A stretch of DNA of 63,336 bases, counting the filler, from Folioceros fuciformis (Eukaryota): assembly GCA_049999805.1 (NCBI GenBank). It is 4 parts of 4 records of this genome, joined end to end, with 100 filler letters (N's around TTAATTAATTAA, not from the genome) between each part and the next. Parts side by side here need not be neighbours in the genome. Positions count along the whole stretch, not along the records: positions 23,166 to 44,406 come from JBNGIO010003110.1; 3 more parts are not named here. One strand, 5' to 3'. Position numbers and translations under genes: made by a program. The notes under the pieces were generated by a model. That model was not told where the DNA came from, did not search any database, and saw only the letters and a program-made list of their open reading frames with translations. The stretch's first letter is position 1. The number at the start of each line of letters is the position of its first letter. Of this stretch, positions 7,779 to 36,800 are shown one piece after another.

Positions 7779-10700
7779 TGTTGGAGAAATAGCTTGCACG
7801 CTACGGATCAGCACCCAAAACATAGCAACAGGGGGCAAAGGCAGAGGTCATCCCCTCATTAGACGACCCTCACACCTGCATCAACAACCACATGGAGTTT
7901 TCAATAGCTCTAGCAGCTATCCTGTGAAGAAGAAAATCAAAGGACCTTGCAACTGGTGCTGTATCTTGGGCACTACGAGCACGAATGCAGAAAGAAGCAT
8001 TCGGGACAACCCCGACGAGACTCACCTCGATACGAGTCCAATGTTATCACATTTGTGACAAAGTCAACCCCTGCAAGTTCAATTTTAGCTATTTGTTTGA
8101 CGTTGACTAGAACAGACAGTTGCATATGGTTTTTGGACTCAAGAGCCACAACGCACATCTACAACTGCAAGGAGATGTTCACGTCATATTATACTGTCAA
8201 TTTTGATCAGCATGTCTTTTTAGGCGAAAATAGTTCTCTTTCAGTTGATGGGACTGGCGAAGTACAGTTGTGGTTGTCCACTAGAGAGGCTCTCACTATC
8301 AAGGGCGTCCTCCATATGCTTGCAATGACAAAGAACCTCCTTTCAATCTGCAAGTTAGCAAGAGAGTACGACCTTATCATTACCTTTCAAGGCAATCACT
8401 GTTCTATTCACCACAGGAAGGACAAAACTCAAACTGCCATAGCACATGGACTCCCTTTCAACGACTTGTCTCTCCTCAATATACAGCCATTCACATCACT
8501 GGTTGTTGATTGCTCCTTGTCTGGCGACCAAGACAACATACATCTATGGCACTGCCAAGCAGGGCACATCAACCCTAGGTACCTTAGCTCATTTGCCAAT
8601 CAATCTATGTACAAAGATCCTGTTAGTATTAAGGTACCAAAGGATTTCTTCAGCAAGATATGCAAGTATGCCAAGTTAAACCAACTTCCTTTAACGATCC
8701 TTCACCCACAAGAGCTCAACGCTTATTGGAAGTCGTTCATTCTGACATGTGCGGACCAATGAGCACCTCCAGCTTTGTAGATCATTCCTATTTCCTAACC
8801 TTCATGGATGAATGGAGTAGGTACTGCCATATTTTCTTCCCGCAACATAAGGACAAGGCACTTACTTGTTTCAAAGATTTTCTCCTATCAGTAGCAAGGC
8901 AAACAAGATTTCAGGTCAGCACACTCCAAACCGACAACAGAGGGGAATATACAAGGCACACTTTCCACGACTTTTGTAGGTCCAAAGGGATCCTCCGCCA
9001 ACTTATAGTACCTCACACACTTGCTCAGAATCCCTTTGCGGAGCGCCTGAATCGCTCCCTTCTCGAGATATCGCAATCCATTCTTAAGCTTTCGGGGCTT
9101 AACCGAGGTTACTGGGCAAAGGCCGTGGCTACATCCAACTACTTGAAAAAAAGATTACCTACTACAAAGGAGCTTCCTAGCATTACAACGTTTGAACGCT
9201 GGATAGGGCACAAGCCAAGAATTTCTCACCTCGGAATATTTGGAAGCCTAGCAGTTGCCCATATCCCCAACGTCTCTCGCATGAAATTGGAAGACAAGGG
9301 CCGAAAGCTCCTCTTCATCGGGTACTCATATCAGTCTAAGGCATATCGCCTCTTTGACCCTTCTACCCGTGAGGTAATCCTCTCTCGTAGTGTCCACTTT
9401 CACATATCCTTGCTCCTTCGCTCCTACACTATCTCCCTTTCCTCTCCTTATCCTACCCCCAGCATATCAAGCTCCCTTTCCTTAGATTCCCCTCTTACCC
9501 TTAAGAGGGGGCCACACATTACGAGGACTATTAGCTCCAAGTGCAGGATGAAATCTTCCAACCCTAGCAGCAGCCAATCCCACCTAAACAATCATCTCTT
9601 GACCAACAGCTTCCAGCCCCTAACGTAGATGAACAGCATGATCATGAGGTATGTCATGCTCCATAACCTCCTCCTATTCCTTTAAGATGCTCCTCTCGTC
9701 ACAGACCACCCAGACACGAGTGGTTAGAGCCTCCCTACATGCCTGGAGACACACTAACTTTAAGAGCACCCTCCTCACTTGAAAACCCTCATATAGATCA
9801 CGTTTAGCTAGCCCTTCGCCAAGCTCTCTCCACAATAGAAATGCAGGATGTCCCTGCCAACATCCAAGAAGCCCTTAGTACCCCTGAGTGGACAACTGCT
9901 GTAAAATCAAAATACGATTCCTTGATAGCAAACAATACCTGGAAGTTGACTGACCTACCAGTTGGAAGAAAGCCGATCTGCTGTAAGTAAACCTTCCACA
10001 AAAAGTTGAACCCAGATGGAATATTCTCTCGGTATAAGGCTAGACTGGTAGCCCAGGGCTTCACTCAAGTGTCAGGTTTTGATTATGACGAAACCAGACT
10101 CTTTAGTCCTGTCATAAAGGCAACTTCAATTAGAAAATTGAAGTCCAGCCCAAGTTTGGAACGAGACTGTAGACCAGTACCTCAAGACAGGTGATTTCAG
10201 TCCTATCTCTTCCGACACTATTGTGTACATCCTGAAGACCAAAAACAAGTTTGCAATTATCACTCTGTACGTGGATGACAATTTCATATTTGGGGATAGT
10301 ATGGAGATCATTCAGTACGTGAAGGACCTCCTGTCGAAGGAATATAAAGTGGTAGATATGGGACCTCTACGCTATGCATTAGGTGTACAATTCGAGTTTA
10401 ATAAGGAGGATCACTCCTTCTTCATCCACCAGGAACATTATGTAAGCCAACTGCTCGAAAGGTTTAACCTGAAAGACGCGAAGCCCATGGCAAACTCCAG
10501 TGGCATCTAGAGAGAAGGTATCGGCTGCCCCACTGCCCAAGCATACCTGAGGAAATACAGGAGATGTTAGGCATACCATATAGCGAGCCAGTAGGTAGTC
10601 TGCTCTACCTATCCATATGGACGAGACCTGATGTTGCACAAGCAGTGAACATGGCATCTAAATACCTCTCCAATCCTAGCAAAGCTCACTGGACCTGCGT

Positions 10701-11895
10701 CAAGCGTATATTGCATTATTTAAAGAAGACAAAGTCATTGGGGCTCATATATAGAGGTAACCATTCTCCCAAGCTCACCCTAACTTCCTTCTTAGATGCA
10801 GATTGGGCAGGAGATCTAGATGCGAGGAAATCAACTACAGCATACTGCATGACCATCAATGGTTGCACAATATCATGGGCGTGTAAGAAGATGCAGACCA
10901 TCTGCACCTTGTCAACAAAAGCAAAGTATGCAGCTACCACACTTGCAGCCAAGGAGATCATTTGGGTGAGACAATTCTTACAAGACATCAGCGAGAACCA
11001 GGATCACCCAACACAATTGTTCTGCGACAATCAGTCGGCCATCGCCATGACTCTTAACCCGGTGCTACATGCAAGGACTAAGCACGTAGAGATACAGCAT
11101 CACTTTATTCGACAAGTAGTATCCAGCAAGCAAGTTATACTGAAGTACATCAACACGACGGACAATATTACGGATCTGCTGACAAAGGGCATGCCGAAAG
11201 CACTCCTTAAGAAGCACACCAAAGGCATAGGCCTGGAGAGCAAAGAGTCTTATCTTGGCATCCATGCATCTGATGTCTCCAACAACCAGGATGCAGGGGG
11301 AGCATCTTAGCCCCTTTCGTAGCTCGGATTGGTTCTGGGGACAAACCCCCATTGACAGCTCAATCATCTGGAAGAGGCTAGACAATCGCCAGCTTGAGCC
11401 AAGCCCTAAGATTGTGACCTTCAGTTACAACAGCTCGAGCACCTTGCTTCTTCAATTTGCACCTTCCATCTTTGTGTTTGGGTACTTCCTCTTGCTCGAG
11501 ACTCGCAACCTTTTCACTGATCAGCTTGATTATGTGACTCGCAAGCTAGAGTAGCCACTAGAGACTTGACAGCACACTAAGGACAAGGTTGAGACAAGTA
11601 TGGGAGACTGAAGCCATCACGGCGAGCTTGAATCCGCAGCGAGGGGGAGTTTTGGAGAAACAACTTGCACGCTACGAATCAACACCTAGACATAGCAACA
11701 ATTTAGGGCATGTTTCGTTTAATAAGGATAAAACTTTAGTTGATTGAAACTGTTGTTTTAGTTATTTCCATTAATACATGTTAACCGAATAAAACGATTA
11801 TATAACTATACTCTCCTGAGTATATGTACATAGTTTTCCCTTAAATCAAAGTACTCTCTCAATTTGTATTTTCCTAGCTTCTTGATACAACTTTA
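7779..11895 (+). mobile_element. Ty1/copia LTR retrotransposon with internal deletions (5' LTR truncated, PBS and most of gag lost)
   Basis: 5' LTR stub 7779-7830 matches the start of the 3' LTR (11650-11895). PPT GAGGGGGAG at 11641-11649. TSD AGTAC at 7774-7778 and 11896-11900. Domain order is zinc knuckle, protease (WFLDS), integrase (HSDMCGP, TDNRGEY), RT (YVDD), RNase H (DADWAG, CDNQSAI). Confidence 0.92.
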
Positions 11896-12549: not shown

Positions 12550-15500
12550 TGATCGGATAAATCCATACTTTTATATACAAGGGAATAGAAGCATATTTCT
12601 ATTCAAAATAATACATTACATAATTTGAACAAGTGTTACTTCTTATATACTAAGTAACCCTTCACTAAGTGCTCTTTGGATATACGAACCCTAATTGGTT
12701 ATAACATAGCCCTAACCCTAAGCGACAATAAGCTTATGCCCTAACACCCTCCCTTAAGCGTACGAGCTTAGAGAGGCATCCAAAGGTTAGTCACGAGGAG
12801 CGGGCACCGGCTGGTTGTGGGGATGATGCAATTACGCCCAACAACCTTCATTGAGTGCGCACCTATGCGCTTAATCTGGTAGGGATGGCTACAAGTATTG
12901 CGACAGGTTACACTACCTTCATCACAGCCATTTGCACTTGTGTGCAAATCCTCAGTCTATTGTTGGTGGCAGCCATGGCTCCCAAACGTAAGGCAAGAGG
13001 CGGGAAGGCTGCTAGCCCTATGTGTGAGCACGGTAGGAAAGGAAGAGGGAGGTAGAAAAATCAGCTGCCACGACCTGTTCCCCTAAAGGCTTAGGAGTGG
13101 GATGAACGCCATGTCCTAGGCTCATGTGTGACGGACGGTGGGTGGAAGATTACCCTTGAAGTTAAACTATGCTGGAGCAAGCCCGTGAGGGTGGAGGAGA
13201 GCTGCAACCTGCCAGCAGATGTGGGAGATAGCGCCTACTTGCTCAAACAACTTCACGAAGCAAAGAAGTTGCTCCAGCTACTCAAAGAGAGGCAAGAGAG
13301 GGAGAGGTGATCATCCAGCACCCAGGTCCCTTTCAAAACGTGGAGCTTCATCCACCTGCTGCTAGTATTAAAATACTGCTGTTACTACTGCTTAACAATC
13401 TACTGCTAATGAGCACACTGCTGCTGTGTAACCCTCCCTGTCTCATGACTGTAGGCAAAAACAGGAGACACCAGGCAGCTGGCAACAAAGCACAACTGTA
13501 ACAACATCAGAGGACTAGGTCCTCACCCGTAAGGCCCCCTCTCACTGTGCACTGAAGTATTGGTTGTAATTAAACAGTCCAAGGCCATCCATATGTTTTT
13601 GATGTTTGTCTTTAGGCAGGGCCTTTGTTAGGATGTCAGCTATGTTGCCATCAGTAGGCACATAAAGGATTTTAACAATTCCCCTCTCAGCTGCATCCCT
13701 AACATAGTGGTGGTGGATCTCGATATATTTCGTCCGTGCATGGAAGCAGGGGTTAGCCACCATGGTGATCACAGATTGGTTGTCACAAAAGAGGTGAGTG
13801 GGCCCATCCTGTGTCTCTCCTATATCCTTCAAGAATGCACGGTCCCATTCAACTTCTTTTGTGGCATCTGTAAGGGACTTATATTCAGCCTCAGTGCTGG
13901 ATAAGGCTATACTAGTCTGCTTCTTGTAGCTCCAGTTGACAGCTGCTTGGGACAAGAGGAAAGCATATATTCTGGAGTCACTATCAGAAGCCCAGTCAGC
14001 GTCAGTGAACCCTTGCAAAGATAAGTGCCTCTTACCACTGCTCCTGTAGCATAGGCCTATATGGTGAGTCCCTTTCAAGTATCGAAAGATTCTCTTTACG
14101 GTAGTCCAGTGGGCACGGCTAGGGTGCTCTAAGAACTATGAAACAGTGCTGACTAAGTGCTGGATGTCGGGTCGTGTCCAGTTACTAACAAAAATTAGAC
14201 TACCCACAACGTGACGATATAGAATGTCCTGCATGTCCAGTTGGTCAGCTTCAGTTGTGGCACATTCATATCTCATGAGCTTGGCACCTATTGCACCTGG
14301 AGTAGCTGCTGGATGTGCCTGGCCCATGTTGAACTTGTGCAGAATCTCTGTTATGTATTTATGCTGGTGTATTATGAGCAGTCCCTTAGAACGGACCCTT
14401 AACACCTGAATACCAAGGCAGAATAGGAGATATCCACTGTGTGTCATCTCAAATGTTTCCCTTAACATGTCCTTAAGGTGTGTGAGTAGGGATGTGTCGT
14501 TGGTTGCAAGTATCACATCGTCTACATAAAGGGCAAGAATCACGTAAGTATCCCCTTTCTTCAACACATACACATTTGAGTCTGCTTGGCATTGGCGAAA
14601 ACCAAGGCCTTTAAGAGCTTTGTCACAACGCTTATACCAGCGTTCTGCACTTTGCTTCAGCCCATATAAGCATTTGATTAACTGACACACGTAATCAGGA
14701 TGTGCAGGATTGGCATATTCTTTAGGCTGTTCCATACACAGCTCTTCCTCAAGGATGCCATGGAGGAAAGTAGTGCATACATCCATCTGCTGCAGTTCCA
14801 GATCATCCTCAGTTGCTAGGGCAAATATCAGCCTAAGGGATTGAGCACGAACTACAGGAGAGAATGTCTCCTGATAGTCCAAGCCAGCAATTTGTGTGAA
14901 ACCCCGAGCACATGAACGTTCTTTGTACCTTGCTATTTTTCCCTCTGCATTGAGTTTGTGTTTGAACATCCACTTACAAGTAATAGGTTTTCTATTGGTA
15001 GGCCTAGGAACCAGCTTCCATGTTCCATTTTTGATCAAGCTATTATATTCGTTGTCTACTACGATTTTCCATTTCTCCTTGTCTGGACCAATGAAAGCTT
15101 CTGTAAGGCTAATCGGCTCTATTGGAACAGGAGGGGGAGATATAACAGCTCCTGCATGACGGCGGAAATCAACAGATTGGTATCTTGGTTCCTTCCACTC
15201 TGAAGGTGGAGGTCTTGGGCGAGCTGATCGTCGTGGACTAGCATCTTCATCCACAAGAGGGGCCATAGCCATAGGATGAGGGATGTCAACAACCTCATGC
15301 CCGACATCTTCATCTATAGGTTGGCCAGCCTCTTCAAAAAGGTTTTGTTGTTCCTCCTGTGCTTCGTCATGATCATCATAGAATACATCTAGATCATCCT
15401 CAACATCTAGCAGTGGTGCAAGCTCCTGTTGTTGGTCAGGAGCAGCATCCAGGTCGCCTAGAGGGTCTGGAGGTGGATCTGCCATGTCTCCTAACACTTG

Positions 15501-18500
15501 TGGTTCAGGGTCAGCATCATCAGGGTAGAAGGAAAACAGTGCGACTGGTTTGTCAAGCTCATCATCAACACTAGTCATAGGTTCTAAGACGAGTCTACTC
15601 TTCTTATCAACAAGTTGAAAGGGTTCCACAAAGGTGACGCTTCTTGCTAGAACCAATTGTTGTGATGTTGGATCAAGCAGCTTATATGCTTTCACCTGTT
15701 TGGTGTAACCCATAAATGTTAAGTAGCGAGAACGATTGTCTAACTTCCTGTGCTTCTTTGCAGGGATATAAACATAGGCCTTGGATCCAAAAATCTTGAG
15801 GTGAAGGAGACTAGGTTTCCATTTCCAGACAAGCTCAAAAGGTGTGGCAGAGGCAAGGGGGCTAGTGGGCAGTTTGTTCAGTATGTACGTGGAGGTCACT
15901 ATAACTTCAGCCCAATAGGAAGAAGGTAAGCCTGCCCATAATAACATAGTTTGAGTCATACCCATCAGTGTTTGGTTTGTGTTTGGTTTTTACGTTCAAC
16001 AACTCCATTCTGTTGCTGCGTGTAAGGGACTATTAGCTGATGGATAATGCCTTGTTCTGCCAGGGAAAGGTCCATGTATATCGGGTATAATCATCAATAA
16101 TGGTCAAGTAGTATTCTGCCCCACCAAGTGAAAGAACCTAAAGACGGCAAGAGATGTCAGAGTGAACAAGGTCTAGAAGTTGTGAAGACCTGTGAGCCCC
16201 GTGGGCAGAAGGGAAAGGTTGCTCCTTTTGCTTGGCGAGGGCATAGGTCTCACAGAGTGGCAGTTCCTTCAAACCAGTAGGTAAGGGTTCCCTAAAAAGG
16301 TTTGACTTTGACATAGCAGCCATTGTGGTCCTATTAACATGCCCCAAAAGGGCATGCCGTAGGACAGATTGCTGCTTGGTTGTAAGGTTGCCTACACTTG
16401 CTGAATATGCCTTGTTCTTGTGACCAGGTAAACAGATGATGTCAAGACGATATAGATCATGATCTGGTATAGCCTTGAAGACACAAGTGGCTGGTGAAGC
16501 TTTCCTAAAGAAACAACAACAGTAATCGTGAGAGGTGAGCTCAAAAATCTTGAGCTGCAGAAGTTTGCTCAAGAACAGGAGGTTTTTGGCCATGTGTGGC
16601 ACAAAAAGCACGTCTGTGAGAGTCAGTATTGTCTCACCACTCAATTGAAAGTTGCAGCACCCTTGGCCTTGGATCTCCAGACTTGTGGCTTTTTGTTCAT
16701 CACCTAAGTATACCCTGTCAACAGTGGTGGAATACACTAGGGAACTGAACAAGGATACATCTCTACAAATGTGGGAAGTGGCACAAGAATCCAAGTACCA
16801 AGCTGTCTTGTCTTTAACAATTGCTATGGCTGTAGATCTGAGAGGCCTTTTAGGCTCGCTAGCTTTCTTCTTTCGACAATCACGAGCCCAATGGCCAGGG
16901 ATGCCACACAAATTACACGTACCTATACGCTTGGTTGAATTGGAATTAGAGGATCCTGCATCATTTCGAGAGCTTTGATTGTGAGGTGTTGTCCTTGGCC
17001 TGCCTCTTTGCCTTGGTCTACCATGGAAAGCAGTAAGTACTCTGTCAACTTTGGACTTGGACCCAGACCCTGACATGAGTCTGCTTTGCTCTTCTTGGAA
17101 CAGGGCACCAATCACCTCGTCTAAGGTGAGAGTTGAAGTTTTACCAGCAGCCTGAGCCTGCCGGATGGGGATATTATGCATAGAGAAAAAAATCTAATAA
17201 CTAGGAGGGAGACTTGTCAAGAGCTGTGCAATGACGTCAACTTCGTCAATTACAGTTCCAACAGCAACTAGCTGTGCACGGAGATGTCAGAGCTTGCTAG
17301 TGTGAGCAAGTACCTTATCTCCTTCCCTCATTTTCAGTCCATAGAATTCTTGTCTTAGTGTGTATAAGGTAAGAACATTTCTTACTTCGTATTGGTTGGA
17401 CAGCTGTTTCCATATCTCACTTGCTTTTGTGAGATGCTCAATTGCAGGAATCATGTCTTCTGTAATACCACCTACTAGGAGCGCAATGGATATACCATTG
17501 GCATGAGCCCATCTATCCTTCTCTCCCTTAGTCTTAAAGGGATCAGTTTCATGGATAGACCCATCCACTATGCCCCAAACACCTCTGGCTAGCAATGTAG
17601 ATTTCATTCTAACTCTCCAAACTTCATACTTATGCCCATTGAACCTGTCTTTTTCTTTCAATTCAGATGTGAATTGAAAGAAAAAGGGCTATTGTAGCCA
17701 GGAGGAGGAGGTGGGATAGTTCCCATCGTTTGAAAAGGAATGGGCACTATACTAAGTGTGTTAAGTTGTTGTGCAAGGAGATCGACAAGAGGATCCTGAA
17801 GATCTATTTATGAGCTAGAGCTGCTAAGGGACAAGGTATAAGCATCCTCGTGAGACATAGAAGAACTATCTGTCATGCGTGTGGACAGGAGCCAACAACA
17901 GGACTAGCCTACAAGCATTCTAGATGATACTGTTCAAGTCAAAACGAAATGGTAAGTATGAAACATTGCTCTAGTTGTTAGTTTTCTATTCATAAGTTTT
18001 GAAAGAAACCCTAACTAACCAACCATGTGACGGTTGATGTTGGCGAAGTGTCACGAGAGCAGGAAAGGTGCATTGCCTGGAGGCACCTCTTCCTGCGAAC
18101 AACCACGACGCTTGGCATCTGGGCTGCCACTGGCTCCTGCTGCAAAAAAATGATCACTTTTCTGCGTTTTGCCTTGCAGGATTAGGAAGCAGAGTAGGCA
18201 AATACAATGCAACAACAGGTTGCATAGCAGAGATTATTGTGTCCTGGCGATTCAAACTGCATATAACTTCTAGCAGATGAGAGAGCTCTTGGGTGAGCAT
18301 TTCCAGTCGTCTGTTGGTTTCTGTTGAAAAATAATCTATCATGTCGATGACTTGTATGTACAACAGTGCCGCATTCAAACCCTGTCTAGCAAGGAGTCTC
18401 AACAGAATTTCTTCTGTGTTGGCAAGTCTGTCACTTAGTACTCTATATGCTCCAATAATCTTAGGTAATCTTGGAGAATTGTCTAGAAATAATGTTGCAA

Positions 18501-24134: not shown

Positions 24135-25043
24135 ATGACGAAATCTCTCGTGCAGCCTGTGTTTGTGAATTCCCCTTCCACCTTCGTGGATTCTGGGTGC
24201 ACCAGGGTTGGGGCGCGGTTCAAACAGAAAAGCTTGGATAATCTCTGTCTTTCTTCACCCTTTCTTGACATGTCGGGGATATCGAGGTTGAAAAGGGAGG
24301 AGCGAGAAACAGCGATGCAGGTGAAATCTGCCAGACCTACTGTGGAGGCAAGACTTTTCGGACCGGCCCTGTTTGAAGCCTCCAAGTTGAGCGTTCTGTT
24401 CCTAGGGGTGGACAAAGGAGATCTTCAACTTCGGCCCCGCATCTACACCCTCACTCACAGCGACATCACTGCCAAGCTAACGCTCGCTATTTCAGAGGAG
24501 ATCAACAAGGCTCAACTGAAGGGTTGGTATAGCAGTTTCCAAAGAGATGAAGTCCTTGGTGAGTGGAAGAAAGTGAAGGGTCATATGGCTCTGCATGTGC
24601 ACTGCCACATCAGTGGAGGCAATTTCTACCACAACATGATAGCCAATTTCCGCTACTACATCTTTCGCAAGGAGCTGCCTGTGGTTTTGGCGGCTTTTCT
24701 TCATGGTGACAGAGAATTCTTCGAGAAGCACCCGCAGCTGGAGCAGTCCTTGGTCTGGGTTTATTTCCACTCAAACGTGAAGAAGTACAATAAGCTTGAG
24801 TGTTGGGGTCCCCTCGTAGAAGCTGCTAAGCGCACATGCTTGTCAGCAAAGGAAGCAATTCATCGGGCGATGGAGGGTGCTTTAGAGGTCCCTCAATGGC
24901 CCAAGCAGCTGAGGCCACGCAGCATGTGCGCCTACCCGTGTGAGTGCTGCTCTCGACATGGCAGCTCCATACCCTTGCCGGAATCTTTTGCCATGCTAAG
25001 ACAGGAGCACCAGGATGGTTCAGCAGCTGATGTGAAGTCATAA
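24135..25043 (+). CDS. SGR: STAY-GREEN magnesium dechelatase (SGR1 type), intronless CDS
   Basis: Motifs ARLFGPALFEASKL.VLF, PRIYTLTHSDITAKLTLAI, QRDEV..EWKK, LHVHCHISGG, RYYIFRKELP and YFHSN..YNKLECWGPL. C-terminal Cys motif P-x3-C-x3-C-x-CC. Ser/Thr/basic N-terminus fits a transit peptide. Start codon placed by inference. Confidence 0.94.
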   Translation: MTKSLVQPVFVNSPSTFVDSGCTRVGARFKQKSLDNLCLSSPFLDMSGISRLKREERETAMQVKSARPTVEARLFGPALFEASKLSVLFLGVDKGDLQLRPRIYTLTHSDITAKLTLAISEEINKAQLKGWYSSFQRDEVLGEWKKVKGHMALHVHCHISGGNFYHNMIANFRYYIFRKELPVVLAAFLHGDREFFEKHPQLEQSLVWVYFHSNVKKYNKLECWGPLVEAAKRTCLSAKEAIHRAMEGALEVPQWPKQLRPRSMCAYPCECCSRHGSSIPLPESFAMLRQEHQDGSAADVKS

Positions 25044-25456
25044 AACACCCGGATCTGGTTGATGTGTACAGATTCTTTTAGTGGTAGAGGTTGTTCTTTC
25101 TGCAGCTTCTTACAGGTGTATCAAGCAAGAGGTGCTTCTATGAGCGTCACCGAAGTTTGTGCACTTTGGGAGAAAACCCTACATGGTCTTATGCTGTGGT
25201 AAATGTCACTCAAGTTGTGCTGAGAGAACCATTGTGAGTATGTAGTTGCCCGGGTATTGGTTCCTTAGATGTACAAACCACATAGTCAATGAACTTGAAA
25301 GCAGTATGTTATCTGATTAGAAATGGCTGGCCTTCATTCAAAAATGTATAATTATTGTGATTCATGTACTCTTCTTAGCACTCCTCATGCACTCCTATAT
25401 ACCTTCTTCTCTAGCCCAGGAATTTTTGATATATGGCATGTTACAGTGGGCGTATG

Positions 25457-25590
25457 TTCTTTTCTTTGTCTCAAGAATAAGAATTAGAATTCTTTTTTTT
25501 GTCTCAAGAATAAGAATTAGAATTCCCTTCTTTGTCTCAAGAATAAGAATTAGAATTCTTTTCTTTGTCTCAAGAATAAGAATCAGAATC
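25457..25590. repeat. Tandem repeat, 33 bp x4
   Basis: Unit ttctttgtctcaagaataagaattagaattctt. Confidence 0.92.
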
Positions 25591-25727
25591 TAGGTGAGTA
25601 TTTGATAATTATATAAATATTTTTATTTTTATTTAAAAAATTTTTAAATATTTATAAATTCTGCACAAAGCTTCTGAACATAGGGCACCTTTACCATCAC
25701 CGGCCAAGCAGCACAACTAACATATCA

Positions 25728-25842
25728 CAGCATATTTGTACATAGCAATCATAGTATATTACTTATTACTTATCGGACTACCATAGCACATTTGTACATA
25801 GCAATCAACGTATATTACTTATTACTTATCGGACTACCATAG
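25728..25842. repeat. Tandem duplication, ~57 bp x2
   Basis: atttgtacatagcaatca..gtatattacttattacttatcggactaccatagc occurs twice. Confidence 0.85.
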
Positions 25843-26064
25843 CGATGAGCATGCAAGCGGTTGGCCTAGTGCCCATTGCCATTGAATCCACGATCCCCCT
25901 CCCCTTAGTCAGAGACCATGCAAGAGGCCAAGGGACCCATTTGTACCTAGTTGTGATTATGGTTGAAGGAGCTTAGGTCTTGTGGAATCAAAGTCCTCCA
26001 GCTACAAGGCCTTATATATGTGGGCCCGTAGATGCTTATGCTTCCATATTCTACGAGCTTCCAT

Positions 26065-26160
26065 GGCTTAAGTCATCCCCCACATGGACGTAGGGTTTCA
26101 TGTCCCTAGGCTGTGGCTTAGGTCATCCCCCACATGGACGTAGGGTTTTATGGCCCTAGG
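26065..26160. repeat. Tandem duplication, ~50 bp x2
   Basis: ggctta.gtcatcccccacatggacgtagggttt.atg.ccctagg occurs twice. Confidence 0.85.
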
Positions 26161-27064
26161 TTTACACCCTGGTAATCTGTGCAGGTAATTTTGTAATCAT
26201 CTTTTTGGTAACATATACACCACAAGAAATAGCTAGTGTTTGTATCAATTTTTTGTAACACAATTTGTAGCAGCTCCGAAAAGTGTTACAAACAATTGCT
26301 TAGAGGGCCGGTATAGAATTCATAGCTAATTTTAATACTTCGTGGTAAAACTTTCCATATTCTATGTTGATAAGTGAGGGTAGGGTCGTCGAACCACCCT
26401 TAATATGATCTACGCCAAATGGGCGGATTCTTGAAAGCCCATTCGATGCCAATGACAAAATGTGAAGGACCAACCGCATATCTATTTAAGTTCATTAGGG
26501 TTCAAGGAAGGGTGCTGCACGCATGTGTGCCATAGTATTGAATTTGAAAAAACCCGAAAACACACAAGTAAGCTTGCATAACTTAAGCCATGGAGAGGCT
26601 TTTACAACTTAAAGTTGTAGGTCCAAAAAGGAGTGCGCCGGTATACTGGAGCACCTAAGCCTAAAAGTTTTGGCTTCTCAAAACCAAAAACTCTTAAAAT
26701 CTCAAGGCAATTTGTTGTGGTTAGCTTCTGAATCATGTACTACATTTAGGGACCTAAGTCGTTGCTCCGTCATGTCCGCAAAATCATCACCCTCTACCTC
26801 GAGGACAAAAAATTGCGGTGCCTCCATAGTTTGGGGTGGGAGTTCATCCCGTTTTGTTATAGCAAGAGGATGTCCCTCAACCCTTTCGACCTTTTGCGAG
26901 CCCTTATCGCCCTTCTTCCCAAGTAGGTTGAAGACTTGCATCTTCCTATCAATATTCCCACAATATTCCCATCAGAGCAAACTTCTTTCACCCAAAATTT
27001 TGAAGGTCCTCTAATGAATGATGAAATAGAAATCTCCTTTTTTGCATTTGGTAGTTTCCTATTC

Positions 27065-27890
27065 CCAAAATCCTCTGTTTCATGTATAAGGTGCACCTAA
27101 GGTCCATGTCGATGCCCACCACATGCGGCTCGTAAAAAAACTTCCAAAACCTACAAAGGCATCTACTACCTAGTCACCTTCATAGAAGAACATCCACAAT
27201 AGTATACCTAACAATCCAAAGGGGTTTTGATATGGCAAGACAACCATAGAGTCTACAATATGAAATAGATGTTTTTTTACCATGGCCTCATGACGAATAA
27301 CTCAAGGAAGAAGGTTTTCATCCTAAGAAAATAGTGGTGCCCTTGGTTAAATGGCCTCCACCTTCACAACACTGCCAATGGTTAGATACTCTATTGCCTC
27401 CACTACTCCAGAGTTTGGTGGAATATTTGTCTTCTTCTAGATAAGGGTTGGTATGGTACTCTTTTCACACCATCGACATAAAGCCTCTCTCGCTTGCATC
27501 ACTCTGTCCACACCGTGTATGATGATAGTCAGGTAGACATTACTACTAGTACACTCATTGAATCCACTCAATAGCTCTTCTAGCTCAACTTCAGTCAGCA
27601 GCTTATCATTCTCATGTCTTTGCAGTCCATGTGGTAAATCAGCAAAAAGCAAAGTATATGCTCGTTTCATCATAAAAGCCTTCGTTGTCAAGTACATTTC
27701 TATAAAATACCTAATATTTGACTTTGTCTTTTGTATTTTAAATCCTATATTCAAACAATCCTATATCCATATATGCATCTGCCAATTTCTGCTTCTTCTC
27801 CTCCATCCGATTCCAATTCCGAGCACAGTAAACGTAGTCCTAAAATGGCTTTGGAAGAGACTCTAGGTCAGTGATGCTTGCTGGCTTCTG
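27065..27890 (-). pseudogene. Decayed beta-class amino-DNA methyltransferase (N6_N4_Mtase family)
   Basis: One frame, read through stops, gives LLFADLPHG (motif IV-like, 27640-27626), LI*KKTN..EYLTIG (W-x-K..E), PYQNP..LL..LL and EGD*VVDAFVGFGS (motif I FxGxG, 27169-27140). After a frameshift comes HVVGIDMD..MKQRI. The catalytic motif precedes the SAM motif, which is the beta order. Confidence 0.75.
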
Positions 27891-27949
27891 CAATTCATCA
27901 CATGAACATGAAGAAGTCAAACGAGGCATTGATGTTGGCATCAAATCTT

Positions 27950-28455
27950 TGATGCACTGGTATGCCAATGCATCATACTAATGCATCAAGCATCTTCCCT
28001 TTGTGGGTATGCCAATATACCGATGCATCCCTGTCTTATCCTTGCACAGGTGCACCGATATACCGGTGCACGAAGGATGTCTTATCCCTGCACAGGTGCA
28101 CCACGAAATCTCTGCATGGATACGTTGGTATGCCAGTGCACCCACGAAATCTTTGTGTGGGTGTGTTAGCTCACAAACGCATTTCATGGTATACCTGCGC
28201 ACTCGCGAAATCTCTTTGTGCCAAATCTTTGTGCGGGTGTGACGTATATTGGTGAACCCGTCTAGACCTTGCTTGGGTGCGCCGGTATACTAGCACATAA
28301 ACTAATGTCCCACAATATACAACACTTGCAATTAATTTGGACATTAATGTCTTTGACCAAAAATAGTAGATCATGGTGTGCCGATGTACCAGCGCACCAT
28401 GCTTATGATGTGTAGGTAGACCAATGCACCATGCTCTTCATACGCTAGTATACCA
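27950..28455. repeat. Cluster of degenerate palindromic GGTGCACCGGTATACCGGTGCACC-like motifs
   Basis: Examples: gtgcaccgatataccggtgcac (~28050-28071), ggtgcgccggtatactagcac (~28276) and ggtgtgccgatgtaccagcgcacc (~28375). Confidence 0.7.
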
Positions 28456-29569
28456 ACACAATACGATGACAAACCACATTTACCTTCGTTTCTTTGTTGT
28501 ATGTTTTGCAGGTATACTCAAGTACCATTCCATTTGTAGGCTAGTAGACCAAGGCACATTTCTGCATTACTGGCAATCTTGTCTTGATGCCATTGCATGA
28601 GCAGATCAAACTAGTATTAGACAATGGCAAACGCCTCACATTGTCCGTGGACTCGTAAACAGCCTGGAAACGAAGGTAATGCATTTGGAGAGTGGACATA
28701 GTAGACTTGAGACATGCCGTTTTACTTGATCTTGTCAAGTGCAGTCTAGTCAGAAAACCCAATAAATCACAAGCTCACCCACATACATTGGTAAAAACTA
28801 AATATTTTATGGACAATCCTAGTTTTTCCTATGATGAATTGAAAAAAGACGACTGCATCTTGATTTCATAGAGGGATTTGCATGGACAAAAAAGAGAGCA
28901 GCTCGTTTTCAAGGAATATGCCTATTAGGCAAAGACCTTGTCCATATGATCATTAAACAATCCCACCAACAATGGGAACCAACGGGAACCAACGGGAACA
29001 TAAATTGTCTCAACTATAATGCGGCCACCTAGAGGCCGAAAGGCGGACTATAATTGAGGACTATCACTATTGTGCAGGTGGGCTGTGCTAGCAAAGGGGT
29101 TGATTGTTCCTTGGTCTTTGACCTTTGAACAATTTGCAAAAGCCTATATAAGGGAGGCACCCCATAGATGTAGAGTCAGTTTGTGATTGGGGTCAGCTTG
29201 GGAGTAGGGTGTCATAGTCTGTGGACTTAGTCTGAGAAGGAACATAGTCGAAGCTCAACGACAGTCGCGGAAGGTGGAAAGTGGTTGTAGAAGGGGCAGT
29301 CGGTAGTGGAAGCCAGTGGCGGTCGTGGAAACAGGAACAGCTGCCGGCGGATGGAAACCCTCAAGGGAAGCCCAAGTGTCCAAGGGCCATTTTCGAAGTG
29401 GAGCGCAACCACAACTGAAGCGGTGTCGGGGAGTAGACTCGGGCGAACAAAGGATCGGGCGTACAGGCTAAACGTAGGGGCCAGGAAGGGAGCAGCGGGC
29501 TTGGGGCAATGGCCATCTCCTGACAGGCTCGAGGAAGTGCAAGGCTGTAAGGAGCAGGTTAGGAGATGG

Positions 29570-31402
29570 TGGCGGCGCGCCGGCTAACCCTGGAGCAGCG
29601 ATGGATGGCGGAAGTAGCGGCTGAGCTAACGTTCGTTGATCTTTGCAGGGATGCTGCACCCAGACCTATGGTGCAGGTCGAGGTTGCCCTCTGGCCCAAC
29701 ATGAACTACTGGAGGGTCCGGGTAGGTGAACTGGTGGAGGAGTTGGGTCTCGGGATCCTGACAAAGCGTTGGAACTACACGAACCCGAGCCTAGTGCAGG
29801 AGTGTGCACAATAGCTGCGGAGTAAGGCACCGATGGGAGGAATCAAAGGTAGACCTAGGACTGGGACATGGACTTGGTCAGAGCGGTGTATGGGCGCAAT
29901 CTAGAGGAAGTTGGAGGACTCGTAATCGAATCCTTACGGAAGCAAAGCCCCTAGGGTGGTAGCAACAATAGCACTATTCAAGGTAGGCATAGGGCGGGAG
30001 GCCAACGGCTGGCTGGCGCACGAGATGGCATCTACTCAGCTCATGGGCCTAGCCAAATAGCTCCTCTGCTTTGTATAGCATAAGAAGCAAGATTACTTAT
30101 CTAACCACATGTTGTTGTTCCTACACAAGGTGGTCAAGGGGAGCAAGATTGACAAGGGGAAGATTATTTTCGATAGGTTGAGTGAGGAGAGGCAGAATCT
30201 GACCTCTCCCACTCCCTGGCCATCCTTAATTTCTCCTTTCCTTGTTCATCTGTATTCACATGTTAACTGCTTGCTAGAGTTAGACATTGTGGCTTCCTTG
30301 CATATGTGGAAGCCTGTTAGGGAAATCAAGTGGAAGCCAGATGAGCCCAAGAAAGAGATAGAGTCCAACAGCTGGGAATCCGGAGTGATAGGTAGCTCTG
30401 AAGAGGAGGTCCCCATCGGCTGGAAACGGAAGGCGAGAGGAAGCAGAAAAACTCCTACGAAGAGGAAGAAGGTGGGTGCGCACGTCACCAGGTCTAAAGC
30501 AAACCTAGCACTGCAGGAGATGGCCAGGAAAACAAAGACCAAGCCACAAGCCACCCCAATTGTAGAACCCAATGAAGAGGCACCAATGGCGGAGAGGTCT
30601 GCTGATGTGGCTATAGGCATTTTGGAGAAATTAGGGTTGACCCCGACAGTGGAACTCTTCCCTAGATGGGAAGAAGTCTTTAAGGGCACCCCTTTGGTGG
30701 CAAATTTGCAGACGGAAGAGCTAGTTAGAGTGCGCACCCTACTGGGCAAGGGAATATTGGATAGAGGGATGGCTACTGGCGGAACCCCTCAACAGGTAGA
30801 TTTATCGGGGTTGACAGCGGCCATGGTCCGAGCACAGGCAGACATGCTAGATCAGGCCGCATTGGCGCGCACTTGGTTGAGCATGCAGGGAAAGCGAGAT
30901 GAGAAGGTGCAGGCCAAGCTAGCTAAAGCGAAGGCAAGGCGGAAACATCTAGAGGAAGCCCAATAGGCCCTTGACGTAGTGAGAGCTCAACTACAGGGAA
31001 TTATGCAGGGCACAGGAAGAAGTGTAGGCCATGAAGAACCAGCAGGAACTGCTCCTAACCCAAGTCAAGGAAGTGTATGAAGCAAATCAGGAAATGCAGC
31101 AGGAACTGTTACGGGCACAGGAGCAAGAGGTAGCCGCTTTGGAGAAGGTCCAGAAGCTAGCGGACCGTTACAAATGGGAATGGGATGAGGCCCGGAGCCA
31201 AGTCAAGGGGAAAGGGAAAGTCAAATGGAGCAATAGGTCCACAACCAAGGTAGTGGGAGTCGCTACCGGTAGGGGAGAAACGACGCCAATAGAGGGAAGC
31301 CCTACCATGGTCAGGGAAGCAGCCACAGTCGTAGAACCAACATCCAGGGTTGCTGAAACCCCTACCCACACTAGGAGGACTGGATTGGACACTCCATGGT
31401 AG
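29570..31402 (+). pseudogene. Degenerate TE-associated accessory ORF (retroelement-type, with NLS and coiled coil)
   Basis: Long near-continuous frame broken by TAG stops. Contains IKGRP..W, ISPFLVHLY, a basic KRK..KRKK stretch and a C-terminal coiled coil. TATA-like cctatataagg at ~29143. Family not established. Confidence 0.45.
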
Positions 31403-32229
31403 CCCACGGGAGGAGGGGGTAAGCACCTCATCTGCAGCAGGAGGCCAGATTGTATTAAAGCACATGAATGAGGAGTCTTATATTCCTAGTCTCTATGTAA
31501 ATGGAGATCGTGTACTTAACCTTATTCTCCATGTGCGTGTGGGAATAGGAGGGACCAGGGCCTATTGTTTGAAGTGAGGACCCGCAATGGATGCTTCTCT
31601 TATTGCGTCTGGGTGTGGGAGCTAACCCCTTGTTATTCGGAGGCAGTCTTGAAGGAGCTCATAGAGGAAGAGGTATAGGCCTGGGCCATCTTTATCAAAT
31701 CTTATCTAAATCCTATTTTTAAGATGCAATAACTTCTAGCCTACTTCAACACCGCGCTCTCCTCCTATCCGTCCTTCTAGCCCTCCGTCCTCTACTGCCA
31801 AACCCCTGGGCTCTCCTTCCTCGCTGCTGGTCAAGCAGGTCTTCCCATAAAAGCTCCACCTCGCTCCCACTACTGACTGACCTGTCCTAGCTAGGAATAG
31901 GTGGGGTCCGCCTTGGAGTCCTTTCTTCCCCCACTGGTCTCCTCTTGCTAAGGACCATCACATGTTCCTTCTCCCACCTAGTCTTGTATACGGCAATATT
32001 GCTCCCAGGTGGCCCTTGCTTTGACATTTCAACGGCCTAGCCCCCTAATCATTGCACCCTTGCAAATTTTACCGAGTTTAGGCATTTTTGCTTCCTTTGT
32101 GGCCATCCGTGCTATTTGTCCTTTGGACTAACCTTACCAATAGGTGGCGTGGTGTGTGGGATGTGGATGCTTTTTCTTTATGGATGCCACCTTGCTTACA
32201 ATTGGAGATGGTGAGTATTTTGTTGTCTA

Positions 32230-32385
32230 GAAGGTTGTGCAAAAGTTAAATAGTGTCGCGAAGTTGAATGGAAGTTTGACGGTGCAGTGCAAAAGTTTAA
32301 TGGTGCCCTAAAGTTGAATAGAAGTTTAATGGTGCTGCGAAGTTGAATGGAAGTTTAACCGTGCCGTGAAAAAGATTAATGGTGG
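32230..32385. repeat. Degenerate short tandem repeats directly upstream of LINE ORF1
   Basis: Repeated aaagtt(t/g)aat(g/a)gtg and gaagttgaatggaagttt motifs. Confidence 0.6.
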
Positions 32386-33801
32386 TCGAGGAGCACTCAC
32401 GATAGGCGGAATGGAGCGGCAGGTTGTGGCATGACGGCCTGATGGAAGCATTGAGGCCCCCACGGGGGGGCTCGACAGTCCACACATGGGCCCAAGTGGC
32501 CGGCATGGGTTCAGACGTGCAGAATAGACGGAAGTCTATTAAGGGTGCGCAAGCAACTAATCCGGTTGAGCTTAGGCGGAAGGAAGCAATACCTGAGAAG
32601 GAGGATCAGGTACGGTGTCTTGGGAAGGAAACCGCTCGTGAGAGGTCAAACGAGGACACAAGTACAGATCAAGTCTCGGCCCCGACAAATGAGGTAAACG
32701 GCATCCAACTCGGCCCTTTGGCAGACCTCTTGACCGAGGAACAATTCTTCCAACAGGAGGAGTTTAGGCTGTCGGGTAGCTCGGTGGTGGGGAGGCTGTC
32801 TGCCGGAGGGCTGCCCTCGGTAGGCGAGGTTGAGGGGTGGGTAACCCCAGGTTATGGGGTGTCCCCCTGTTTACATCTTCCTCAAAGAAGACGGCTCCTT
32901 TCAGGTTAAGTGTGATGAAGCAACTGGAGCTCTTGCACTATTGCAAACAACATTGCCCTTCAGAGACTCAACCCCGGTGGTGGTCGAGGTGTGGTCTCCA
33001 GGAAGCACAATCATGCACTCCCAGATCAAGAGGCACTTTATCTGGGTGCATTTGCCCGCCCTACCGGCATAGCTTATTCCATTGATTGGCAGGATGCTGG
33101 AAACAATCGGCCGGGTGGTTGAGCTCCCACAGGTGGACTCCCGTTTTCTCAACAGAAGAAAGCCTCCTCGATTCAGTGTAAGGGTGAACAATCTCACTGC
33201 CTTACCTGCTGGGGTGGTGGTTCGAGATTCGGCAGATTCCTCAAAGAGCTATATATCGCTCTTCGACTACCCAGGTCTTCCTTTAAGGTGTGGAATCTAT
33301 GGCTTGACTAATCACCTCAAGCTAGAGTGTCCGCTCCACTTAGGTCCAGAAGAACGGAAGGTCAAGTCAGAGAAGACCCAGGTCGAACGCTTACCGGGGT
33401 TTCAAGGCGTCCAGAGGAAGCCGTGGAGAGCGAATCTGACAGCGCAACGATGGGCTCATAGAATTCAAGAGGATGTCTTCCCAAGTCTGGCTGGCATGAC
33501 CATCACGCAGGTGAAAATCTGTGTAATAATGCGGAAGACGGTGGAGAACACCTTCTACTACTGGATGCCAAGAGGGGAGGAAATGCATGCGCTGCCTACT
33601 CGGTCTCTTCAGCTAGGAGCTGCAGAGGGCATCCGAATGGTGCTGTTGTGGGAGACAGTCAGGAGGAGGGCTAAAAGCGTTATTCAAGAGGGTCTGGCTG
33701 TGGGGGAAGATTGTGCAAGCAAGTTTTCAAAGGAAGCAAGGTACAGCGCAGCTTGTCATCGGTTTGAAGGATCCTCAGCCGATCGTGTGTAACAAGTCGG
33801 G

Positions 33802-36800
33802 TGTTGAAAATAGCGGAAGCATAAACTTGAATATGCAAGTGTGTGTAATAATCATGAAAACAAAACTTGACAAGGTCTTATATACTAATAAGCCTAAACC
33901 TAACTTAAGTTTGTTTGACCCTAAGGTAGGTTATATACTAAATAACACGTAGTTATTTTAACACTCCCACTTAACCTACGCTTAGGTTAAATGCGATACT
34001 TTACCCACATACAGTATATCACCTCATACAGAATACGGACTCAAATATCGCTAAATACAAAGTAGGTATGAAACAGCACGCGACACCATCAAGCGACCAT
34101 GTGCCCAAAAGCAGACACACACTTGAAGACAACACCGCAGGCAAGAAATGAAGACAAGAGCACTCTTCTAGCGGTAGCATGCAAGCTCCAACACACTTCC
34201 ATGGCTCAACTCTATAGCAGTTTGCCCTCTTGTTATTCGAAATTGCTAGCCACTCTGATGAAAAACCTTGATTCTGTATTCGTCACAGGAATCCAACTTC
34301 CAGCATAGAAGAACAGGCTAGAGCATGAGCCAGCCTTGTTGTTTTGCTATTACTTCAATCAGGCTCCTAATAAAGAGGTCACAGTTGTGGGAAATTGTCA
34401 CAAAATACCAAGTACTCCTGGCCTGTGCACATCCAGCACATGACTGGATAGTTCGTCATGACTTCATCCACCATGCTGGACCACAGCCAGGTATGATAAA
34501 AACTGTTGTTTGTTAAACTTCATATACACAAGTCTAACCACTACCTCCGTTTCTTATTGTGGATAGATAGATGTGGAAGAAAACACCGGGAGCACACGCC
34601 TGAAGCTAGTAGCCAGAGAGTCAAAACAGACAAAAACACTGTATTGCGCCTCGCATGAGCACCAAATAAACATGTCTCCAGAAAGTCTACACTCCCACTG
34701 TCCACAATAACAAGCACTCTGCTAGGTAGATTTGGAAGGGAGATTAAACTCCCTTAATCCTAGGGCTACCATATGTTTAAAATGTTTTAATTTTGGTAGC
34801 CCCTTGGTTAGAATATCTGCTGTATTATTTTTTGTATTAACATATTCCACTTTAACAAGTACCCTTTCTGCGACATCCCTAATGTAGTGATGATAAAGCT
34901 CAATATGCTTCGTGCGAGCATGAAATCATGGATTAGAGACCAGTGCGATAGCACTCATATTGTCACAAAGTAACAAAGTGGAACCCTGCTACTTCTATTG
35001 GATAGACTCCAAGAACTGACGCTCCCATTCCGCCTCCTTGCAAGCATCGGTAAGAGCTGTGTACTCAGCCTCAGTAGATGAGAGAGCAAGAGATGTTTGT
35101 TTCTTACAACTCCAACTCACTACAGCAGAAGACAGCATGAAACAATAAGCTGAAAGACTTTTCCTGGAATCAGAGTCTGAGGCCCAATCAGCATCAGCGA
35201 AGGCTGTAAGCTCCAAACCCTTACTCCCACTTGCTGAATATTGTAGGCCATAGGAAATAGTGCCTTTCAAATATCTGTAAATCCTCTTGATAGCAGCCCA
35301 GTGCACACGACCCGGTTGCTTCAAGAATTGAGAAACCATGCTCACCGAATAGCTAATATCAGAACGAGTCCAATTAGAGAGGAAGATCAAGCAACCCACT
35401 GCCTCAACATAAGGGACAGTGGCCATTTCAGCAACATCAACACTAGTGAAATCTTCAGCTGTTAACTTCACCCCCACTGCTGAGGGAGTGGCAACAGGAC
35501 GAGCATCCTGAAGACGAAAGCGTTGAAGAAGTTCCTTAAGGTACTTAGTTTGATGCATAGTGATCAATCCAGCTGACCTGTCTCGCGGAATCTGAATGCC
35601 CAGACAGAACTGCAGATCCCCCTGATCTGTCATTTCAAACTCACGGCGTAACATCTCCTTCACTGTCGCAAGTTGGTCAAGAGTGGTACTCAACAACACA
35701 CAGTCATCCACATACAAAGCAAGGATAACAAATTGAGCACCAGCCGGAAGGAAGAACACACAACTATCAGCAGGAGACTGCAGAAAGCCAAGCTAAGTAA
35801 GGTACTTCATAATCCTCTTGTACCAAGCTCTAGGAGATTGTTTTAAGCCGTAAATAGTCTTGGACAGCTTACAAACTTGATGTGGATGTTGTTTATCCAC
35901 AAAGCCTTGAGGCTGCTCCACATAGAGGGTCTCCTCTAACTCGCCATGTAGAAATGTTGTGCAAACATCCATCTGCTGGACCTCCAAATCAAGCTCAGCT
36001 GCAAGGGCCATGAGAATCCGGATAGAGGGTGGTTTCACCACAGGAGAGAAAGTATCACCATAATCTATCCCACGTATTTGTCTAAAACCTCGAGCAACAA
36101 GCCTTGATTTGTATCTAGCTATTGTTCCATCTGCATTGAGCTTAGTCTTGAACACCCACTTACAACTAATGGGCTTACATCCTAGTGGAAGATCAGCTAA
36201 CTCCCAAGTCTTATTCTTGATCAAAGAGTTATACTCATCTGCAATCAAAACTCTCCAATGTTCACCATTAGGACCACCAAGAGCTTCAGCATAAGTCTGT
36301 GGATCAGGACAAACTTCACGTACATGCAAGTTAACAGCATGAGCTTGTGGACGCCTGAAGTCAATGGATTGATATGGTGGTTCTATCCATTGCTCTCTGG
36401 GGCGTCTCTCATGAGTAGGATAGTGAGGTTCAGGTGCTGGTTTGACTTGAGGAACAACATCCTCTTCAACAACAGCATTTGGTCCAACCTCAGCATCGTC
36501 TACTTGTTCATCATGATCATCCTCAGAAGCAACAGAACCATCAGAAACATGAACATCCTCACCAACATCAACTGGAGCAAAGTCCTCTTGTCCTTGATCA
36601 TCAACTGGCTCAAGTTCAGGTAATTCAAGCACCACTTCAGCATCTGATTCCGGATAATCGACAGGTGGGGCTTGCATCAACCCATCATTCGGTCCTGAAA
36701 AACTAACTTGTGAATCTAATGACTCAGCAAAAGCACTAGCCAAATCTAGATCTGCTCCCACTAAATCCAACTGTTCAGCAACAAGGCTAGTCCAAGGAGT

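Follow-up and report, generated by a model that had tools for sequence, protein, structure and literature searches.

The beta class of DNA amino-methyltransferases is permuted, with the catalytic motif IV placed N-terminal to the S-adenosylmethionine (SAM)-binding motif I and a target-recognition region lying between the two. The class consensus for motif IV is (D/N/S)-P-P-(Y/F/W), where D or N in the first position indicates an adenine enzyme and S a cytosine enzyme. CcrM of Caulobacter (PDB 6pbd), a beta-class N6-adenine enzyme of the bacterial cell cycle, carries DPPY and has a C-terminal DNA-binding domain. The family PF01555 comprises both specificities, with repeated switches between them (Rodriguez et al., PMC8885841), and the accessible text of two sources gives two cases of prokaryote-type PF01555 amino-methyltransferases in eukaryotes, namely the bdelloid rotifers and Marchantia (PMC8885841, PMC12344493). 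The rotifer N4CMT (PDB 8s9m, 8s9n, 8s9o) is described there as a case in which a eukaryote acquired a PF01555 domain (PMC8885841), and its gene has a chromodomain and introns. In Marchantia polymorpha MpDN4MT1a/b, which act in sperm to give N4-methylcytosine (4mC), are an example of a prokaryote-type amino-methyltransferase in a land-plant genome; according to the preprint, they have a TSPPY motif IV, are functional and are highly expressed (10.1101/2021.02.12.428880). Some phages have fusions in which a ParB-like domain lies ahead of the methyltransferase (cf. 10.1101/2025.10.10.680097). The locus described here lies in a window of 63,336 nucleotides (the whole stretch of DNA analysed, filler included) from Folioceros fuciformis, within positions 23,166-44,406, which represent record JBNGIO010003110.1 of assembly GCA_049999805.1. 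It is very probably a real, dead and 5'-truncated copy of a plant-resident, phage-like family of beta-class amino-methyltransferases.

The relic is carried on the minus strand, where one frame runs continuously from 27880 to 27101 (read through as protein P0001, with the frame-shifted piece as P0002) and contains 7 stops in 260 codons. The core of the pseudogene, from the motif IV region through to SAM-binding motif I, occupies 27140-27688 in a single frame, in which there are 5 stops in 183 codons; the remaining five frames have 9 to 17 each. These stops are TAG at 27437-27439, TAA at 27347-27349, TAG at 27323-27325, TGA at 27302-27304 and TAG at 27170-27172. The first and last of them fall in alignment columns where the relatives almost always have W, and the probable change at both is therefore TGG to TAG. 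Translation along the coding strand gives RAYTLLFADLPHGL at 27623-27664 and, within it, the motif IV equivalent D-L-P-H-G (27626-27640, codons GAT TTA CCA CAT GGA), which aligns with DLPRG, DIPYG, DAPYG and DIPHG of the relatives and with DPPY of CcrM. There follow LI-stop-KKTN at 27425-27445, corresponding to a WxKTN block with its W replaced by TAG (in the family alignment every row has K150 and N152 and nearly every row W148), EYLTIG at 27374-27391, PYQNP at 27221-27235, corresponding to a PYQKP block (HPTQKP in CcrM) in which N has taken the place of K, and EGD-stop-VVDAFVGFGS at 27140-27181, the stretch before motif I in which the conserved W has given way to the TAG at 27170-27172. The FxGxG pattern of motif I itself is retained as FVGFG at 27143-27157, where the relatives have F/C-x-G-S/T-G. 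DLPHG precedes FVGFG on the coding strand, which is the beta-class order, and the order IV...X...I was also seen in the alignments.

Immediately behind motif I there is a frameshift zone (27126-27139, minus strand), recognised from the alignment and from a collinear second high-scoring segment pair (HSP) in another frame. Only 14 nucleotides are present here as against approximately 10 codons between GSGS and NVIAVD in the closest relatives (the P0004 group), so that a deletion has removed about five codons and, its length being no multiple of three, shifted the frame. The C-terminal continuation HVVGIDMDLRCTLYMKQRI (HVVGIDMD..RI) lies beyond it in the shifted frame at 27069-27125 on the same strand, as found by BLASTP, by second tblastn HSPs and by profile. 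In the BLASTP comparison with residues 294-314 of relative P0004 the shifted piece is 48% identical over 21 residues (E 2e-5), at the place expected behind motif I. On the other side of the core a possible N-terminal extension with 2 further stops (27689-27887, minus strand) was placed by MAFFT alone and is not significant; in it SLFQSHF (27842-27862) is aligned with STFQEHI and KSFKAHI of relatives, again by MAFFT only, and a profile match at 27777-27887 is in a different frame and insignificant (i-E 0.62). A note made earlier from the sequence alone had listed five motif strings, and these were all recovered in the order given, on the minus strand and with the last in a different frame. Of the residues that the note had supplied in brackets, a supposed K is N in the DNA and a supposed S is F.

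Evidence that this reading reflects true homology came from a full phmmer scan of 1.84 billion representative proteins with the read-through protein, which returned 9 relatives at E<=1e-3 (range 8.9e-11 to 5.9e-4), the top one being 29% identical over query residues 64-250. The gathering score of PF01555 (26.7 bits) is passed by 8 of the 9 relatives, with 30.0-65.7 bits; the ninth is a 229-residue fragment lacking the C-terminal part. Three more Ginkgo models score 29.4-68.9 bits against the same family. A profile made from the nine relatives alone gave the window's frame 107.8 bits, whereas 500 shuffles and the reversed sequence gave at most 0.8. When a second profile (A2), built from ten full-length relatives, was run over the six frames of the whole window, the sole significant place was 27140-27688 (92.8 bits, i-E 6.6e-30), with a weak collinear continuation in another frame at 27036-27125 (i-E 0.04). 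In agreement with this, tblastn of the relatives matched the core and gave second HSPs on the shifted continuation.

The ancestral class of the enzyme is indicated by a family profile (A1, which includes the window's own row) searched against solved enzymes. The best match was CcrM (1.8e-11), followed by TTHA0409 (3e-11), RsrI (2.1e-9), MboIIA (6.3e-9), M.BceJIV (8urk, 7.1e-9), DpnA (3.7e-7), rotifer N4CMT (3.9e-7) and PvuII (2.3e-4). In the alignment with CcrM, DLPRG is paired with DPPY, WeKtN with WrKsN and PYQKP...GDWVLD.FsGsGT with PTQKP...GDVILDPFFGVGT; motif IV is therefore ahead of motif I here too, as in the beta order. An AlphaFold model of the read-through protein has a pLDDT of 57.5 and a pTM of 0.60, with 101 of 260 residues under 50, and its top Foldseek matches were CcrM (3e-7, TM 0.55), TTHA0409, M.BceJIV, M1.HpyAVI, MboIIA and N4CMT together with MT-A70 proteins. 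Such matches of a low-confidence model are consistent with the class and are not independent proof of it. CcrM is the best solved match, yet it differs from the window (DLPHG) and from the nearest subgroup (DLPRG) at motif IV, and the NCBIfam CcrM model gives the plant family 18-51 bits against a cut-off of 830; the plant family is therefore not a CcrM orthologue.

The target base of the intact ancestors is less readily approached. At motif IV the window has D-L-P-H, the nearest subgroup D-L-P-R and other members D-I-P-Y, D-A-P-Y or D-I-P-H, and H or R at the fourth place lacks the usual aromatic ring. Given that, among 6 annotated phage methyltransferases, 2 have D-L-P-Y, the L at the second place would be a phage variant within the range of PF01555 and no plant novelty. 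The H of DLPHG is encoded by CAT; a single transition would produce it from CGT, a codon for R, the residue of the subgroup, and the H may accordingly be secondary, a decayed R. An argument about specificity from DLPHG is therefore weakened, and with it the leaning towards N6-adenine that the earlier note had seen in DLP(H/Y). Because adenine enzymes top every ranking (the A1 profile, the NCBIfam CcrM-type models, which score below their cut-offs, and Foldseek) and motif IV begins with D, adenine N6 appears the more likely ancestral target than cytosine N4. The reverse proposal, an ancestral enzyme that methylated cytosine N4 and was akin to Marchantia DN4MT1, gains something from the repeated switching of specificity within PF01555 (PMC8885841), from the matches of the family profile to the solved N4-cytosine enzymes N4CMT and PvuII, and from the precedent of a horizontally acquired 4mC enzyme in a liverwort (10.1101/2021.02.12.428880). 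Against it stand the adenine specificity of the top solved and curated matches (CcrM, RsrI, MboIIA, M.BceJIV, DpnA and the NCBIfam CcrM-type models) and the contrast between TSPPY, as given in that preprint, and DLPHG of the window or D-[LIA]-P-[RYH]-G of its relatives. We consider this proposal distinctly unlikely. Motif IV of the relic is not of the SPPY type, and the dead relic is set apart from the working MpDN4MT1a/b by their published description rather than by a comparison of sequences. The rotifer enzyme is matched by the family profile over its SAM-binding part only.

The relatives with named hosts are from land plants: protein MCO5579754.1 of the fern Adiantum nelumboides, on a contig of 836 kb, and the Ginkgo models Gb_37443, Gb_17912, Gb_10123 and Gb_03516, which are nearly identical to each other and differ in their deletions. 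Further members are proteins P0003-P0009 and P0013. All of these are collinear with the window from motif IV to motif I at 21-30% identity, the window copy differing in being broken and in having neither the upstream domain seen in P0013 and Ginkgo nor the possible ParB-like part of the Ginkgo and Adiantum members. A region of 170 residues upstream of the methyltransferase is shared by P0013 and Ginkgo P0020 (27% identity, E 5e-15) and matches no Pfam family; this ties the further members to the plant family rather than to phages. The ParB-like part of the Ginkgo and Adiantum proteins was seen as DUF6551 at E 0.019, below the cut-off, with atlas scores of 0.88-0.89 that serve as leads only, and neither Pfam at E<=0.01 (Ginkgo P0019) nor PDB gave a match for it. 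The atlas's top hit for this part, DUF3723, was set aside as probably wrong. No ParB-like domain of the kind found in the phage fusions was detected in the window by profile or tblastn. Likewise, the upstream domain of the relatives was not detectable upstream of 27887 or elsewhere in the window with a full-length profile or with tblastn of 20 relatives, and the copy is therefore read as 5'-truncated.

Outside plants the nearest relatives are phage PF01555 enzymes, which have the same domain and motif order as the window. The atlas neighbours of P0003 are PF01555 clusters mostly of tailed phages (Uroviricota), and of 7 proteins tested against PHROG 67 and PHROG 498, both labelled DNA methyltransferase, 6 gave a match and only the window's own did not. 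A tblastn search with the Ginkgo protein matched 554 phage records, in all of which the best place was under 60% identical and did not cover 80% of the query; among the 15 listed, identity was 24-28% and restricted to the methyltransferase part. Six phage enzymes were hand-picked from those 15 for a tree. They are 221-262 residues long without extra domains and carry DPPY in 4 cases and DLPY in 2, the latter being annotated methyltransferases of Escherichia phage IMM-001 (ATI17120.1) and Enterococcus phage BUCT824 (XOE87664.1), from phage records PQ815173.1 and MF630922.1, with which the window shares its second-place L. In a tree of 17 rows (ten of the plant family, the window and the six phage enzymes) and 252 columns, the plant-family rows and the window were split from the phage rows with support of 100/99 and the window was placed inside the DLPRG group with support of 93/98. 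The end branch of the window is 1.98 long compared with a median of 0.71 and with 0.28-0.71 for its neighbours. The outgroup is small, and the split marks a distinct family and does not show its donor.

Several observations weigh against the assignment. Neither P0001 nor P0002 matched PF01555 in Pfam even at E<=10, the only match being NUP160 at chance level (E 0.063); the read-through protein had zero matches in NCBIfam and PHROGs and found no methyltransferase among PDB sequences, where all matches were at E 0.13 or worse; no relative was among 300 candidates of a word-indexed protein search; and the six read-through frames of 25050-30052 held 0 Pfam families. The top relative is just 29% identical. 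D-L-P-H at motif IV is a departure from the class consensus (D/N/S)PP(Y/F/W). The structure model draws on the same alignment and its confidence is low, the separation from phages depends on only 6 chosen phage proteins, and hosts are named for the Adiantum and Ginkgo members only and not for the closest relatives. The upstream domain could also have decayed past recognition instead of having been truncated. Membership of the relic in PF01555 is thus argued by transitive homology. The blindness of Pfam to the window probably has its cause near motif I: in the relatives most of the PF01555 match comes from the 50-70 residues surrounding it, and in the window a stop and the frameshift break exactly this part. 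In the earlier note the proposal of a fossil beta-class N6_N4 methyltransferase was to fall if the reconstructed protein matched no methyltransferase profile. Formally the read-through matched none, but this is outweighed by the relatives, and the proposal itself is supported by their PF01555 scores, by the profile matches to CcrM, RsrI and PvuII and by the order of the motifs.

It might be argued from the otherwise long frame and from a ttgcag string on the minus strand just upstream (27893-27888), a candidate acceptor, that the locus is a working gene from which the stops are removed by introns, recoding or editing. The interruptions are not of a kind that would favour this. Two stops stand on conserved W columns within aligned blocks and the remaining three of the core are likewise within the collinear alignment, the deletion breaks the SAM-binding half out of frame, the window's branch is about three times the median and paralogous pieces of the same segment carry further 1-nt indels. 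With five stops in the core and a frameshift there is no open reading frame such as a functional gene would have, and a working gene is very improbable. Contigs from two runs of one sample, which is possibly the source of the assembly itself, reproduced 26931-28500 with zero differences. The stops therefore do not look like an obvious error in the consensus, although this check is not an independent one.

The surroundings of the relic bear on where it came from. The window is plant nuclear DNA, because Staygreen and PPR-DYW genes and copia elements are present in it. The Staygreen (magnesium dechelatase) open reading frame (ORF) is at 24135-25043 on the plus strand (PF12638, E 3.6e-55) and consists of 302 uninterrupted codons, apparently intronless. 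Its best named matches are from bryophytes, with Sphagnum at 58-66% and then Riccia, Marchantia and Ceratodon, and its top match overall is a transcriptome sequence at 72%. On these matches the genome can be called bryophyte-like. A DYW-type deaminase domain at 49361-49783 (plus strand, PF14432, 2.3e-23) is presumably the end of a PPR editing factor, and an aminotransferase ORF is also found in the window. Ty1/copia-type elements or fragments, recognised from gag-, integrase- or reverse transcriptase-like ORFs, lie at 7693-11310 (plus), 13542-17688 (minus), 34995-39158 (minus), 56305-59130 (plus) and 59090-60465 (minus), with confirmation from Pfam at 17287-17688 (Retrotran_gag_2) and 34995-35792 (RVT_2). 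That the match is a product of chance, or the DNA that of a contaminating bacterium or phage, might be suggested by the lack of a direct profile match and by the phage enzymes being the nearest outside relatives. A chance match is hard to reconcile with an E value of 8.9e-11 in 1.84 billion proteins or with 107.8 bits against the shuffles. Contamination in turn does not fit a locus 2 kb from a plant Staygreen ORF, amid copia elements on the same contig and of similar G+C, whose nearest relatives form a family that includes plant proteins and separates from the 6 phage enzymes in the tree, and which is decayed, unlike a contaminant gene. The probability left to either of these is negligible.

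Two other features of the window may be recorded here. A run of long ORFs (295, 124, 167 and 239 residues) at 30079-33792 on the plus strand lies in G+C-richer DNA, matches no Pfam family and may be an unclassified repeat or gene. The ORF at 53490-54218 (plus strand) has, by eye, a long run of Arg-Asp and Arg-Glu dipeptides followed by a short conserved-looking tail, giving it the look of an RS/RD-rich splicing-type protein.

The relic appears not to be the only copy of its segment in this genome. Paralogous contigs from the same sample are approximately 85-90% alike to it over 26640-27708 (about 87%), each at around single-copy depth (8-11 compared with 11-15). They carry 1-nt indels at 27287, 27322, 27466 and 27684/27689, the segment at 27036-27238 is replaced in them, and they have loose ends at 26560 and 27708, with the likeness seemingly extending into both flanks. 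On this evidence the contigs over 26560-27708 would be paralogous or homeologous copies of the segment; these copies appear to be broken too, and the family appears to be small in this genome. Together with the relatives in Adiantum and Ginkgo, the contigs bear out the suggestion in the earlier note that the lineage has or had such a methyltransferase family. In one run of the same sample, 151 of 155 differences over 26683-28495 are G>A, as in a bisulfite-type library. Of the minus-strand cytosines in 26939-27200, those listed as converted were 0 of 3 in CG, 1 of 3 in CHG and 23 of 26 in CHH contexts, and the three unlisted CHH sites are near the contig's end. Because CG and CHG sites are mostly unconverted while CHH sites are converted, this suggests that the relic is CG/CHG-methylated, as read from contigs and from a library type that is itself a guess.

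The earlier note had also considered the family possibly transposon-borne, and for this the locus gave no support. There are no terminal inverted repeats around it, its six read-through frames over 25050-30052 contain no transposase, integrase or reverse transcriptase family, and no second copy of the relic was found within the 63-kb window. Just upstream of the relic, at 27951-28430, 7 copies of a 16-nt motif are arrayed in both orientations. The motif consists of two 8-nt palindromes (of the GGTGCACC and GGTATACC types), and a further pair of copies lies downstream of the relic at 26632-26655. With up to 3 mismatches allowed, 9 matches to the motif were counted against an expectation of 0.36, and every one is in one of these two places flanking the relic. 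As single-stranded DNA, 27940-28470 has a fold z-score of -4.06. Subterminal repeats, an array of binding sites and a small satellite are all candidates for what the motif represents. A mobile-element vehicle for the family, with the relic as a dead insertion, would be compatible with the history set out below and would add a carrier to it. The clustering of the palindromic motif on both sides of the relic may be taken in its favour, as may the four near-identical but differently deleted Ginkgo gene models and the additional contigs from the same sample. Those contigs, however, are at a single-copy depth that would equally fit a segmental or whole-genome duplicate, their likeness does not seem to stop at the flanks, and the missing enzyme families, terminal repeats and second copy again speak against a vehicle of this kind, which we regard as unlikely.

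The history that best accounts for the locus would be that of a non-functional, intronless, 5'-truncated pseudogene of a SAM-dependent PF01555 DNA amino-methyltransferase. Its intact ancestors would have had a catalytic D-L-P-x-G loop (motif IV) ahead of the SAM-binding FxGxG loop (motif I) and, going by the family, would have flipped out the target base and methylated its exocyclic amino group. The family would be resident in the nuclear genomes of land plants, including this one and those of the fern Adiantum and of Ginkgo, and since its nearest outside relatives are phage and bacterial methyltransferases, it was likely acquired long ago from a phage or a bacterium. The copy described here would then have decayed neutrally, as its core stops, its frame-shifting deletion, the loss of a conserved W, a second W and a K and its very long branch suggest, and would now lie in a low-copy duplicated segment that appears to be CG/CHG-methylated.

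A literature search found no land-plant PF01555 family besides the Marchantia work, although the 2025 journal version of that work, which was outside its coverage, may discuss homologues. A tentative extension, possible but still to be doubted, is that non-flowering land plants carry a second, undescribed and phage-derived family, with a DLP(Y/H/R)G loop and a plant-specific upstream domain, that was acquired independently of the SPPY-type DN4MT1. Intact members of it may write N6-methyladenine (6mA), or 4mC, on nuclear DNA, while the DLPRG branch, which includes the relic, may have lost the base-stacking aromatic and may be a non-catalytic binder of SAM or DNA. All the named hosts produce swimming sperm, and DN4MT1 acts in sperm; any link between this and the family is pure speculation. 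As a locus the relic is dead and ordinary, and it matters as a pointer to a separate family with intact-looking members in Ginkgo and Adiantum. If those intact members are active, they would be candidate writers of 6mA or 4mC in non-flowering plants.

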